Made by a program: the position numbers and the translations under genes. Positions 17,202 to 54,768 of a stretch of 64,000 nucleotides of DNA are shown piece after piece (within the stretch, counting starts at the first letter, position 1; the number at the start of each line of letters is the position of its first letter). Origin of the DNA: Somniosus microcephalus (Eukaryota); assembly GCA_052327205.1 (NCBI GenBank), contig CM126228.1, forward strand, positions 14,198,001-14,262,000. Reading direction: 5' to 3'. The notes beneath the pieces are model-generated. The model searched no databases. It was not told where the DNA came from and saw only the letters and a program-made list of their open reading frames with translations.

Positions 17202-17861
17202 GGGGGAAAAATTGGGTTGCTTTGCACCTCCCATTAGCGCCCTCTTAGCGCCCCGCGGCATGCGCTGCTGGCAATGATGTAATCACCATGTGCAGCGGCA
17301 TGCTCATGCATAGGCTGCGATCTTCGGGAGTGCCCCCTGACTTACCGCCAGATGCTATGTCTGATGGGGTCAGAGGGGCCTACCTGTGGCCAGGGAGGCG
17401 CACTTTAGAGGCAAGATGCGGGACGGCCATTTTTGTTGCTGGCCGCCTGCCAGCACCTGCGTGCACTCCCGTCCCCGGCCTCCTGAATGGCCACCGCCCC
17501 CCCAACCCCCACGGAGTGCCAGCTGCGCTCCAAGAGCCCGGCACTTCTCTTGAGTGCTGGGCTCTTTTGCTGGCACTCCCGATCCCTGGGAGCCCAGCTG
17601 GGCCCCAGAATGCGCTGCGCAAGGCCCCGTCCCTTTAAGAAGGGGAGAAAGGCCTGCAATACCGCGGCGCGACGTGCCTCAGCGCATGGCACTGCGGCAC
17701 GTAGTGCCACGATATTGACTCACAGCACCCCAAGAGGGATGTGGGGTGCTTCCTGTAGCGCCCCACTTCCCTCTTGGGGCGCAAACACTCAATTTGCAGC
17801 ACAGGGGTGCTAATTTTTCCAGGGTAGCTAAAAGTAGTGCCCCAGCGAAGTTAGCACCCCC
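17202..17861. mobile_element. Harbinger-like GC-rich MITE (same family as 10772-11395)
   Basis: GGGGG...CCCCC termini; shared internal CCCTTTAA..GGG.AGA..GCCTGCAA and CCAAGAGG...TAGCGC.CC.CTTC.CTCTTGG.GC motifs; TIR imperfect. Confidence 0.7.
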
Positions 17862-26129: not shown

Positions 26130-26600
26130 GAACGGGCGAGCTGGGGTTCTATATAATGATTAAAACATTCCCAAGGACTCAGTCACTCGTGATAAAATGC
26201 CCAAGCACTAACAAGGCCAAGGCAGACATGAATTTAAACGGGAAAGCAGAACCCAGTTGATTTTATTCTGTGATTAGTAATCATGGCCATTGTGTAAATA
26301 ATCCATACCCCTCATCTCATGTGGATTAAGTGCTAATAGATTTTGAACAGGGGAGACTGTCTATTGCTGAGGAAGAGATACACGTCCAGTGCTATGCGTG
26401 GAGTCGTGGGACCATGCCCGAGTCTGGAACACAAAGACCCCTATTCATTGGTCGATGACAAGCGGAAAATCTTCATTGAATAAATGAATCAGAACTAATC
26501 AAATGAGATCACGTGGCCCAGCTTCCACTTTCACCTGCAATCAAGTCTTAACTGAACCGGTCTTATTAATAAATGTACGTCGGGCTAATATTCTCCCAAT
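26130..26600. promoter_or_regulatory. candidate enhancer with Otx/Pitx-type and Sox motifs
   Basis: CATTGT 26288-26293, TAATCC 26299-26304, GGATTA 26323-26328, CACGTG 26510-26515. Confidence 0.35.
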
Positions 26601-27025
26601 GGCCAAGTCAGAACTGGGTTGCAAGTAGAGGATGTCGAACACCCAGACAATGACTCTCCTGCAGTATTGTGTAGGGACACATTTATTGAGCATCAGAAAC
26701 TGATCCACCCACCCTCCCCTCCTCCAGCATCAACAAGTAGGTCACTCCGAACAAGATGGAAACTTTATTCAGAATCCAATCAATATTTTGCAAACCTCCT
26801 CTTATCAGTTTCAGGTGCTATGTTGCCGAGTCGGGTGAGTTGCAATAACATAGAACTGATTGGTCCCAAGTCCCGATACTTTGTGAACTTTTCTGAGCCT
26901 GATATCCCGCGGTACCAAAAGCGCTTGTAAAACGCTTTAACCGTCGCCTGAATTTACAGATTTGAAAAGTAACTGAAGAATGATCTAAAGTGCACCCCTC
27001 CCCGCACACACACGGCGCTGAGATA

Positions 27026-27228
27026 TGGTGTGGAGATGCCGGTGTTGGACTGGGGTGGACAAATGTAAGAAGTCATACAACACCAGGTTATAGTCCAACA
27101 GCTTTATTTGAAATCACAAGCTTTCGGAGCGCTGCTCCTTCGTCAGGTGAAGGAGCAGTGCTCCGAAAGCTTGTGATTTCAAAAAAAGCTGTTGGACTAT
27201 AACCTGGTGTTGTGTGACTTCTTACATT
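27026..27228 (-). mobile_element. Penelope-derived palindromic mini-element with 12-bp TSD
   Basis: Arms 27062-27141 and 27149-27228 (77/80 complementary); flanked by GGCGCTGAGATA (27014-27025) and GGTGCTGAGATA (27229-27240). Confidence 0.9.
27114..27150 (-). ncRNA. minimal type I hammerhead ribozyme
   Basis: Minus strand reads UCAC-CUGACGA-A-GGAGC-AGC-GCUCC-GAAA-GCU-U-GUGA: stem I UCAC/GUGA, intact CUGANGA and GAAA core, 5-bp stem II, palindromic AGCU stem III, predicted cleavage after CUU. Confidence 0.8.
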
Positions 27229-27767
27229 GGTGCTGAGATAGAAACAGATCAGTGATGGAGACGGCGAAACTATGTAGTTAGTGAGTGTGTTGTGGTGGCG
27301 AGAGGAATTGATCACACTTTTAGTTATTCACTTACTTCATGTATGTATAAGACTGTGCTTACGCAGAAAGCAATTCGAGACACTTCCAGTGTATCGTTAA
27401 GCCCCCCACAAGCACCAAACAGGCACACAATTGCTCTGCCTCCGGACCCCAGGCTTTCAGCAACGTTCCGGTTACACCTCATGTCGCTGCACTCGGTCGA
27501 ACCAAGCAGTTGGTCACTGGGGTCAAGAGGTGGAGGTATTTCTGATAGGCTTAAATATTTCATTACACCCCTGGGCAAATAACGTAACACAGTCAGGACT
27601 TGGTGCAAGTGACTCGGAGTAGTGCGGGAGATTAAAAATAAATCCACACTAGGCGGGTGTGAACACTTAACGCCTCACTGCTGTGATCTGACATTAGTCC
27701 CGTTCGTTTAGAATAATTTAGCACAGGCGACACACCTTATCACACTGCAATATCTATGGGATGTATT

Positions 27768-27860
27768 AGAAAGAACTTGTATTTCTATAGCGTCTTTCAC
27801 GACCTCAAGACGTCCCAAAGCCAATGAAGTACTATGGAAGCGTAGGAAAGGACGCAGCTC
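27768..27860 (-). mobile_element. DeuSINE 3' tail fragment
   Basis: AGAAAGAACTTGTATTTCTATAGCGTCTTTCACGACCTC...CGTCCCAAAGC matches 230-290. Confidence 0.7.
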
Positions 27861-41124: not shown

Positions 41125-41315
41125 GGGATAGAAATTCGTCTTGGGCAGTGGCACAGAGCAGGTGATATCGGATCGGCCACCCATTACACACAGCGCCTGA
41201 TATTCAGTTCCGTTGCAGTCAGTAGAAGTAAATATCAGGCGCAGCATATAATGGGCAGCCGATCCGATCTGATTCTGCCCATTTTGTGCCACTGCTTGTG
41301 ACGAATTTCAACCCC
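41125..41315. mobile_element. short Harbinger-like MITE (191 bp)
   Basis: TIRs GGGATAGAAATTCGTC / revcomp GGGGTTGAAATTCGTC (14/16); flanks CAT / CTT. Confidence 0.8.
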
Positions 41316-51975: not shown

Positions 51976-53974
51976 GAGATGTTCATCTCCTTAACAAAGG
52001 CCGTTGCTGTGCAGTGGAATTCGTCCAATGGCCCAGTTTCCAGTTGCAATTACGTGTTTTGACGTGTTCACCCTCGATGTTTAAGGAAATGGCATAAAGT
52101 TGGCGAAAACTTACAGTGCTCCTAGTGTTCCAGAGCTGGCTGCACGTGTCACCCTCCCTCACACTTTCAAACACATTGTATTAGTTTTGTAAACACGATC
52201 TTTTTCCACACGTGTCATTTCTGCCTTCATCTGGTTGAGACCTTACCGAAATATTAAATCTGGATTCATCTCATAGGCAGATGTTAATCCTTGTGCTCCA
52301 TTCCTCCGTTTCTCTCCACCCATCCCTCAGCCCCGTTTAAATCGATCAAATCTCTGGCCTTTATCTCATGAAGGAAACTTTGTTAATCAGACCCCGAATT
52401 AAATGTGGGGTTATTGGCAGTGCGTTACAGACAACCTCGGACCGCAGTGACCCCTTTGCCTGGGTGGTTCTTCGATCCTGGGTACTGGCGTTTGCTGTAC
52501 CTGAACCTGAGGAGGAGCCTGTGATTAAATAACTATCTATTCATGTATTTATGACATTTGGTGAGAAGCCAGGAATATTTAAATACTTTACACCTGTGTT
52601 GTGCAGTGTGATCTGGGTGTACATGGGCTGTTCCGTGCCCTGTGAAAAAAACCTGTATGTACCTATAGATATATAATCATAATATGACAATCATATGGAA
52701 AATATGGTTTATTTCTTTATGTCCATATATTGACATTTCCATGTATGATAATTATGAACAATTATATACTCGTATATGGTCAATAAAGCAAGTATGTATA
52801 ATTACATATGGTTTGTATACAGCCAAATGTTTAATTTTATGCATTTATATATGACTCAAAGAATTACCAAGATAATGTTAAAGTATTCTGATTTGATTGC
52901 TGTTCAGACAGGGTACAGGTGCGGTAAGAAAGGACTAAAATGAAAATAAATGAACAGTTCCGACAGTAAATTGTATCAACTGATTAGAGTTGCTATTTGT
53001 AAACTGACACCTTGCTTGACTCCGGTATTTTGATGTGAGTCATCATATTATTGCAGCCTTTCATGTTGACATGAATCGAACAAAAATAGAATGTGTCGGA
53101 GACGGTGACCAAGGTCTCAATAAGGCGGGCGGCACCTTCAGGTTAAAAAATAACTTCTGTTTGGGGGGGCGAACTTTCACAACGTGGCTCTAATTCTGGG
53201 AATATTTTCGCCACTAAGTCGTTTAGATTTACAACTAACTTTTATTCTATTCCTCTTTCCGCATGAGATCTTTTTCAATAAATTTGTATTATACTTTCTT
53301 CATATTTATCCTTTCCTGGTGTTCGAGTTGCTTCCCTTGCAAGGCAATGGGTTGTGATTGGGTAAGTTTAATTTATATGGGCAGATATATAAAGTGTGTG
53401 AAGTTGCACTGTCCAGGATATTTAGTTTGAGGGAGTTACCCCAAACCAGACTCAGTAATAAATTGTCGATGTTAAGTTAAGTTAAAATTCGCTGTAAAAT
53501 ATTGTAAGATTCGAGTTCTCTGTCCTGGAGTTTGATGCATGTATTGTTAAACTGGTTGATCTTAAGTTTGTTATGGCGAACTTTTCACCCCTATCATTTT
53601 ACAATTTGGTGTAAGTGAGAGACCATTGTTCACACCGTGCGATGCCAACCGCGGCTAAAACCACCAGAGGTGACTAAATTAACCCTTTATCGGCTTCAAC
53701 AATTAAGGAAGCTGTAGAATTTATTGAGGTGTCCAAGCAACTGCCCCTAGCAAAAGCTTGGTATTGGCAAATAGCTGGTTAAATAGCGGATATCATGGTC
53801 TGGATCCTCACTAAGAAGCTCCAAGAAGTTAACCTCACTTGTAAGTGGGTATTGGACAAAACTACCCTTTTACAGAAAAAATCCTGCTCGGAATGCGTAT
53901 CAATGAAATGCCTTAAGCTTCATAAATACAATTATTCTAACGGCTGCTTGTGTTCCAACTTCTCCATGAACACA

Positions 53975-54768
53975 AACAGCCCTTCCCCTTCACCTGGCAC
54001 CTTCCCGTGCAAGCGCAGGAGATGTAACACCTGCCCCTATACCTCCCCCCTTCCCACTGTCCAGGGCCACAAACACCCCTTCCTGGTGAAACAGCGATTT
54101 ACTTGTACTTCTTGCAATCTAGTATATTGTATTCATTGCTCACAATGCGGTCTCCTCTACATTGGGGAGACCAAACGCAGATTGGGTGACCGCTTTGCGG
54201 AACACCTCCATTCAGTCCGTAAGGGTAACCCCGAGCTTCCGGTCGCCTGTCAATTTAATTCACCACTCCATTCCCACTCGGACCTCACCATCCTTGGCCT
54301 CTTGTGGAAGCTCAACGTAAACTCAAGGAACAGCAACTCATCTTCCGATTAGGCACTTTGCAGCCTTCCGGACTCAATATCGAGTTCAACAATTTCAGAT
54401 CATAACCTCAGCCCCTATTACTTTTTTACTTATAATTTTTTCCACCCCTTTGTTTTGGGTCCTCCTTCCCCCCCCCCTTTCCTTTTGTTTCTCTCTCTCA
54501 CCTGGCTGCTGTCTCTTACCTGCCAGTACACTTCACACCTAATCTCAGCTGCCTTTTGTCTCCACTGGCCTATTACCATCTCGTCTGGCTTCGAACACCT
54601 TTTATTGTCTCTTTTTCTTCTTTTGTTTGATGGCAGTCTTGCCTTCGATCTATTTTATTTTCTTTCCAGTTTTGAAGAAGGGTTTCGACCCGAAACGTCA
54701 ACTCAAATTTCTCTCCACGGATGTTGCCTGACCTGCTGAGTTTTTCCAGCATTTTCTGTTGTTATTTA
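53975..54768 (+). mobile_element. Penelope-like element (Poseidon-type) 3' fragment: GIY-YIG endonuclease pseudogene plus pLTR
   Basis: GTFPCKRRRCNTC, FTCTSCNLVYCIHCSQCGLLYIGETKRRLGDRFAEH, PVAC.FN; after a frameshift EAQRKLKEQQLIFRLGTLQPSGLNIEFNNFRS* (stop 54403-54405); pyrimidine-rich 3'UTR and hammerhead. Confidence 0.93.
54668..54703 (+). ncRNA. minimal hammerhead ribozyme, C3U core variant
   Basis: AGUU-UUGAAGA-A-GGGU-UUCG-ACCC-GAAA-CGU-C-AACU: stem I AGUU/AACU, stem II with UUCG loop, palindromic ACGU, GUC site. Confidence 0.7.

Follow-up and report, generated by a model that had tools for sequence, protein, structure and literature searches.

A palindromic Penelope insertion in a shark genome as the likely product of two head-to-head cDNAs

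The 203-bp partly palindromic insertion described here lies in a 64,000-nucleotide stretch of shark DNA (the window) and, judged by sequence comparison, consists of terminal repeat pieces of an abundant 3.1-kb Neptune-like Penelope element. Its best explanation, to which we give a probability of about 0.72, is that twin priming at the target site copied the leader of a capped sense RNA into two cDNAs, which were joined head to head through a 4-bp microhomology. The architecture is already known, and it is the cap signature and the junction data that suggest a new mechanistic clue. The locus is an ordinary one among many short Penelope insertions, and its family offers natural material on an unsettled question of mechanism, the origin of Penelope inverted repeats being called undefined in PMC8557442. 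Furthermore, copies that start with an extra G, together with junctions built around a 1-nt centre, give exact predictions for the start site, the two priming sites and the junction spectrum, all directly testable by the existing in vitro PLE assay.

Structure of the insertion and its target site

The insert occupies 27026-27228 and is bracketed by GGCGCTGAGATA (27014-27025) and GGTGCTGAGATA (27229-27240). Two paired arms of 80 bp, 27062-27141 and 27149-27228, surround a 7-nt loop and differ at three pairs, two of them G-U in plus-strand RNA (27076/27214 and 27131/27159) and the third A-A (27106/27184). An earlier note on this DNA had given the insert, arms, loop and three differences correctly, as it had the lack of CUGA in the plus-strand arm; its picture of an insert that is palindromic throughout does not hold, since 36 nt (27026-27061) have no pairing partner and correspond to the known Penelope tail. 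In the element numbering used below, 0 is the C of the hammerhead CUGA (window 27146, minus strand) and negative positions lie upstream in the element. The features are as follows.

27014-27025, no strand: left copy of the 12-bp target-site duplication (TSD); the empty site in run X8 has a single copy
27026-27152, minus: arm 1, Penelope pLTR and likely mRNA leader, -6 to +120, from comparison with locus L091
27026-27061, minus: 36-nt unpaired tail, +85 to +120, lying between the two places where element 3' ends cluster
27103-27108, minus: AATAAA at +38, putative pLTR poly(A) signal, from its sequence
27114-27150, minus: minimal hammerhead motif of type I, with cleavage predicted between 27118 and 27117
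27142-27148, no strand: 7-nt loop by sequence, -2 to +4 of arm 1, containing CUGAC
27149-27152, no strand: 4-bp junction microhomology, GAAG on the plus strand, belonging to arm 1 (-6 to -3) and arm 2 (+5 to +8)
27149-27228, plus: arm 2, inverted copy without the tail, +5 to +84, lacking the CUGA core
27229-27240, no strand: right copy of the TSD, from sequence and the empty site

Arm 1 is identical to the natural element in L091 at 124 of 127 positions and arm 2 at 77 of 80. The first extends as far as the A of the ATG (at +120) that opens the ORF, its AATAAA is mutated in the opposite arm, at 27184, and the 4-bp microhomology is a native short inverted repeat of the Penelope element. The 64-kb window has no further copy of this family.

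In a contig of organism C (run X8), 26500-27013 joins directly to 27229-27775, with 38 differences in about 1060 flank bases. The earlier note had proposed to look for such an empty site in related sharks; the contig establishes the 12-bp repeat as a true TSD and bears out the view that the insert arrived in a single event. The insertion is common to organisms A and B (B being X2) and absent from C. As for the one mismatch between the two copies of the duplication, which had been attributed to CpG decay, the mismatch is there and the attribution is probably wrong: organism B carries T at 27016, and it is the copy with T to which the empty site aligned, so that the C at 27016 looks derived, by a T-to-C change.

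The parent element and its family

A search of the 6.4-Gb genome with a 33-nt hammerhead pattern gave 11,874 exact matches, compared with 0 for its reversed control. Locus L091 is a 3145-bp unit with the order hammerhead-ORF-hammerhead, whose ORF, broken by one stop and one frameshift, encodes a reverse transcriptase (RT) and, beyond a CX4CxxC linker, a GIY-YIG domain that contains two cysteines (CCHH-type). RVT_1 scored above cut-off in L095, and GIY-YIG was recognised by motif and in homologues, not by a Pfam match on the L091 copy. The nearest named homologues of the ORF are shark proteins, and the family looks common in sharks; a PDB sequence search with the ORF returned 0 matches. Neptune and Nematis elements are defined in PMC8557442 by a CX2-5CxxC linker and CCHH-type cysteines inside GIY-YIG, both of which occur in the L091 and L095 translations, and by these motifs the parent would be placed as a Neptune/Nematis-like Penelope.

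Other features of EN+ Penelope elements are likewise present. The L091 unit carries an ORF with RT and C-terminal GIY-YIG between pLTRs, an inverted 5'-truncated copy adjoins a direct copy, TSDs vary in length, and the pLTR has a minimal hammerhead, seen as a motif and as an isolated fold. The tail, 36 nt here, is one-sided in 24 of 30 junction loci. Over all loci examined, 132 of 273 arm ends fall at +74 to +92 and 124 at +113 to +130, in a partly selected sample whose ratio is no genome-wide estimate; the two clusters are 35 nt apart and bound the tail. A tail of 30-40 bp is borne by PLE insertions (PMC8557442; PMC11167929), and the combination of inverted pLTR, tail and TSD has already been published (PMC3846280; PMC2377424). 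Two loci of the family, L093 and L095, have Gypsy-type LTR retrotransposon frames inside or adjoining the Penelope insertions.

An extra G at the 5' end

The native element sequence has TATATAA at -37, and 30 nt below this TATA box sits the A at -7, which we take to be Inr-like from the consensus. A non-native base at -8 was found in 649 matches, and in 437 of them it is G; G at the control position -11 occurs in 72 matches, a count that includes paralogous repeats, and a subfamily variant (763 matches) made a second control, at -15, uninformative. Among the first 30 loci with a non-native -8, all 23 with G and both with A have foreign upstream sequence, and the five with T are plain mutations. 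A further 641 matches either stop at -6 or have a mutation at -7, with foreign sequence upstream in 27 of 30 loci.

An extra G at the start of an mRNA is a known mark of a copied cap and has been used in this way for L1 (PMC11702581). The 437 copies that start with a non-native G at the Inr thus likely carry a cap-derived signature, and we infer, from DNA only, an RNA start site and cap near -7. For 10 of the 23 G loci the partner arm likewise continues with a G, and there the extra base can be read as microhomology instead of a cap signature; a cap-templated C annealing to G would be expected to leave a G that continues the partner arm, yet this is not independent proof. A splice acceptor was rejected as the source of the extra G, the native bases before -7 being CC and the upstream sequences differing between copies. 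The literature searched, which did not extend to older key papers, held no report of a cap-derived G or of twin priming in Penelope elements, and the 'extra g' mentioned in PMC6431247 appears to be an unrelated matter.

A probable joining of two cDNAs head to head

The reading that we favour would begin with a staggered cut of the target by the endonuclease, about 12 nt apart. One primer would start at the ATG-proximal site to give the arm with the tail, the other at the upstream site to give the arm without it, and the RT would run off at or near the cap, so that only about 90-130 nt would be copied. GAAG at the 3' end of one cDNA would then pair with CTTC of its partner, trimming would remove the flap that holds the second CUGA, and repair would seal the junction. 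In the window the tail arm ends at -6 and its last four bases are complementary to +5 to +8, the longest microhomology beside the cap end. Because use of this microhomology removes the second CUGA, the 'one-sided' ribozyme is accounted for without design.

Evidence on how the arms meet comes from a pattern for tight head-to-head junctions that admits gaps of up to 8 only and gave 187 matches, most loci being counted on both strands. In a tally by hand of 54 loci among the matches listed, the centre is 1 nt long in 42, and in 3 both arms bear the extra G. Since a hairpin primer needs a loop, the 1-nt centres would favour two cDNAs joined end to end. Arms that both bear the extra G and are separated by a single base occur at L203/L204 (G000:C1:216161961-216162011), C8:210746023 and C8:211327044.

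Inverted pairs were surveyed in 90 loci chosen by their position on contig 1, from which 38 distinct ones were listed by eye. Duplicates and copies without inversion were passed over, as were L107 and L159, which are complex; L056 and L164, which share a junction, were both counted. The arm lengths of the 38 pairs correlate (rho 0.57, p 1.6e-4). Non-CpG variants are mirrored between arms 40 times against 8.5 expected, with a maximum of 16 in 2000 permutations, and in the insertions with the window's junction the arms agree in 67 of 68 cases at +44 and again in 67 of 68 at +74.

The strongest alternative, though an unlikely one, is a snap-back, in which a single cDNA would run off at the 5' end of the RNA and the GAAG at its 3' end would bend back, around the 7-nt loop, onto its own CTTC and prime the mirror arm, with the far end resolved upstream. 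For the window copy this route and the two-cDNA route would, as far as sequence goes, give the same product, the junction being the native hairpin of 4-bp stem and 7-nt loop. Copying of an arm from its partner would fit the mirrored variants, and arm lengths lie within 25% of each other in 17 of 38 pairs against 16% by permutation, and in 9 of 20 long pairs against 14%. Mirrored variants and correlated lengths are, however, also expected if one RNA is copied twice from two start sites. Many pairs are very unequal, for instance -24/-1918, and both the 1-nt centres and the double extra G are hard to obtain from a fold-back primer. Furthermore, four loci have a junction 3 nt longer, which is compatible with a chimera of two sub-lineages (the usual one and the altered-core one of L241-L264) in three of them and not in the fourth; slippage, seen in L256, is an alternative source.

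Template switching gives spacer inversion and arm homogenisation (PMC8604942), and since later arm exchange of this kind can mirror variants, these cannot separate one template from two. Four paralogs, L111-L114 (G000:C4, 36.9-39.6 Mb; 96-98% identical over 3.5 kb), share one palindromic insertion, and in L111 alone the 7-nt loop is reversed, so that the hammerhead core lies on the other strand. The flip may have arisen after insertion, as template switching does, with an assembly error as the alternative, and it warns that arm identity in palindromes is no clean clock. A separate locus, L115 (G000:C16:55601481-55601930), carries a copy of the family that inserted independently and has another junction; within a related repeat it sits almost where L111-L114 do, a possible target preference. 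L107 is a double-inverted insertion in which an internal 240-300-bp segment appears flipped between arms.

Within the two-cDNA reading, a more specific and tentative proposal, which we hold at somewhat less than even odds, is that the mirror insertions are twin-primed 'strong-stop' products primed by both target ends on one capped sense mRNA, at the two start sites on either side of the tail, the second cDNA displacing the first and both running off at the cap before being joined head to head. If true, it would account by one mechanism for the one-sided tail, the mirrored variants, the correlated lengths, the extra G and the junctions with two of them, and would decide between a sense and an antisense template.

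Self-priming on an antisense RNA template, which has been proposed for rotifer Penelope palindromes at inverted junctions (PMC3846280), would also make a head-to-head palindrome, and family reads in run X21, from a library that may be unstranded, fall on both strands. We regard it as highly improbable here: the extra G is on the sense strand, at the sense TATA/Inr, and the template of the in vitro reaction is sense RNA (PMC11167929).

A junction probably remade at each insertion

The exact junction of the window has at least 145 exact matches in the genome, about 1% of hammerhead-bearing arms, and hammerhead arms with native upstream sequence account for 11,138 matches. Such a number of copies could point to a non-autonomous, retrozyme-like unit that propagates itself from a fixed master copy and is mobilised in trans. 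The BLAST comparison proposed in the earlier note at first sight agrees: the best 40 matches share the boundaries of the insert and match it over almost its full 203 bp at 95-100% identity, and of 30 fetched for TSD analysis 29 have their own TSD, 10-18 bp in length (12 bp in 16 of the 30). These 40 were, however, chosen for their likeness to the insert, and the 38 pairs sampled by position vary, with 5' ends from +62 to -2290 and none with the window's junction. Random inversion points of this kind had been named beforehand as evidence against a unit, and of the two origins then offered, retrozyme-like unit or inverted truncated Penelope, they back the latter.

Two further observations bear on descent. 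The first 30 junction loci, two sets of 3 paralogs among them, divide into 10 with the tail on the core arm, 14 with it on the opposite arm, 1 with a tail on each arm and 5 with none. Haplotypes at +44/+74/+78 were scored in 68 junction insertions from 75 distinct ones (4 loci without a core and 7 with divergent arms were dropped, and a few paralogs remain), giving GCT 32, GTT 17, ACT 13, GCC 3 and other 3; those of 58 long arms are GCT 28, ACT 15, GTT 13 and other 2. With the tail on either arm and a haplotype mix equal to that of the long copies, the junction probably arises anew with each insertion, in all sub-lineages of the autonomous element, rather than propagating itself. A fixed-boundary non-autonomous unit with a lineage of its own is rejected on inversion points, tail side and haplotypes.

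Metazoan non-LTR retrozymes (PMC7229834; bioRxiv 10.64898/2026.07.22.740005) resemble the insert in being short, non-coding and either derived from PLE pLTRs or related to them, with a type I hammerhead. As described there, they are tandem arrays in head-to-tail order, each unit has a canonical type I hammerhead, and circular RNA is produced, whereas the shark insert is a single head-to-head insertion with one minimal hammerhead core, no tandem array, and a ribozyme predicted to be buried. Self-propagation is thus already largely refuted, and very little weight is left to it. The junction of the window is a true hotspot, explained by the 4-bp microhomology beside the likely capped RNA 5' end.

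The hammerhead and the fate of the copy

Folded alone, the hammerhead at 27150-27114 forms stems I and II with pair probabilities of 0.65-1.0, and the motif is as the earlier note described it, a complete minimal hammerhead on the minus strand. It fits the description of minimal hammerheads in PMC4209133, where they are known in pLTRs, have low activity, and lie close together on opposite strands. An Rfam search of the insert matched no hammerhead family, returning generic miRNA hairpins below their cut-offs. The insert as a whole is far more stable than chance (z = -21 on the plus strand and -24 on the minus, with 0 of 200 shuffles as stable), and inside it the hammerhead stems have a predicted probability of 0.000, their forced formation costing 40.6 kcal/mol. 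If the insert is transcribed, the ribozyme is therefore predicted to be fully buried in the hairpin, and the hairpin-versus-ribozyme switch that had been suggested, at about 41 kcal/mol uphill, would be off rather than a switch. A small sub-lineage with an altered core (CUGAAGG for CUGACGA; L241-L264) has spread to about 18 places, a count of 18 from 24 matches, some of them paired or paralogous, which is in line with the finding that hammerhead cleavage is not needed in vitro (PMC11167929).

In the 24% of RNA run X21 that was covered, 928 family reads fall on the insert and depth is zero on both unique flanks. All 35 window ORFs of at least 110 aa contain retroelement domains only or nothing, with no host gene identified among them, which leaves the putative developmental regulatory domain of the earlier note without support. 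The window copy is most likely inert. An 80-bp hairpin, if transcribed, would be a dsRNA substrate, and the insertion is common to organisms A and B, yet a co-opted role for the copy in the regulation of a nearby gene, be it as hairpin/ribozyme switch or as Dicer/ADAR substrate, is the least probable reading of all, given the silent unique flanks in that part of X21, the absence of the insertion from organism C, an energy gap that means off and not switch, and three differences in 80 bp that look like ordinary decay.

Relation to known systems

Inversions of L1 split one RNA into non-overlapping pieces; unlike these, both shark arms copy the same stretch of RNA. LINE-1 twin priming is otherwise alike, in that both target ends prime and microhomology seals the junction, and the idea that a cap-derived extra G can itself act as microhomology (PMC11702581) is the same for the shark family.

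The closest published architecture is that of Pen2a_Av and its relatives (PMC3846280; scheme in PMC8557442), which share head-to-head inverted pLTRs, a tail of 30-40 bp at one end, a TSD of about 8-12 bp, a TATA box with an Inr-like motif, a pLTR hammerhead and a palindrome at the junction. The shark insert differs in consisting of two pLTR pieces only, without an ORF, and in a tail that ends at the ATG, theirs ending inside the ORF. In contrast to the self-priming on antisense RNA proposed in PMC3846280, the extra G at the Inr and the 1-nt centres of the shark family argue for a capped sense template.

PAc, a Poseidon element of Anolis carolinensis (PMC11167929), is alike in that two RT start sites bound the tail, which in vitro lies between two such internal sites, in that both target strands are cut and extended, and in that the pLTR hammerhead is dispensable for insertion. 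It belongs to another clade, the shark ORF having the CX2-5CxxC linker, and its start sites lie 111-118 nt inside the ORF, whereas those of the shark element come before the ORF. As described in PMC11167929, the PAc work offers no account of inverted junctions.

Other features of the window

A 5'-truncated end of a different Penelope-like family, with a weak GIY-YIG match, lies at 53783-54760 on the plus strand, with an apparent degenerate hammerhead, seen by eye, near 54670-54705. Two older imperfect palindromes, at 41125-41315 and 17725-17782, are 71% and 83% self-complementary and have no BLAST relation to the present family. About 500 bp to the left of the insert, CCAAT-like and CACGTG motifs occur at 26400-26600, where a promoter or enhancer is possible; the CpG observed/expected ratio is 0.65-0.73 in the 26-30 kb interval, compared with 0.2-0.5 over most of 1-26 kb.
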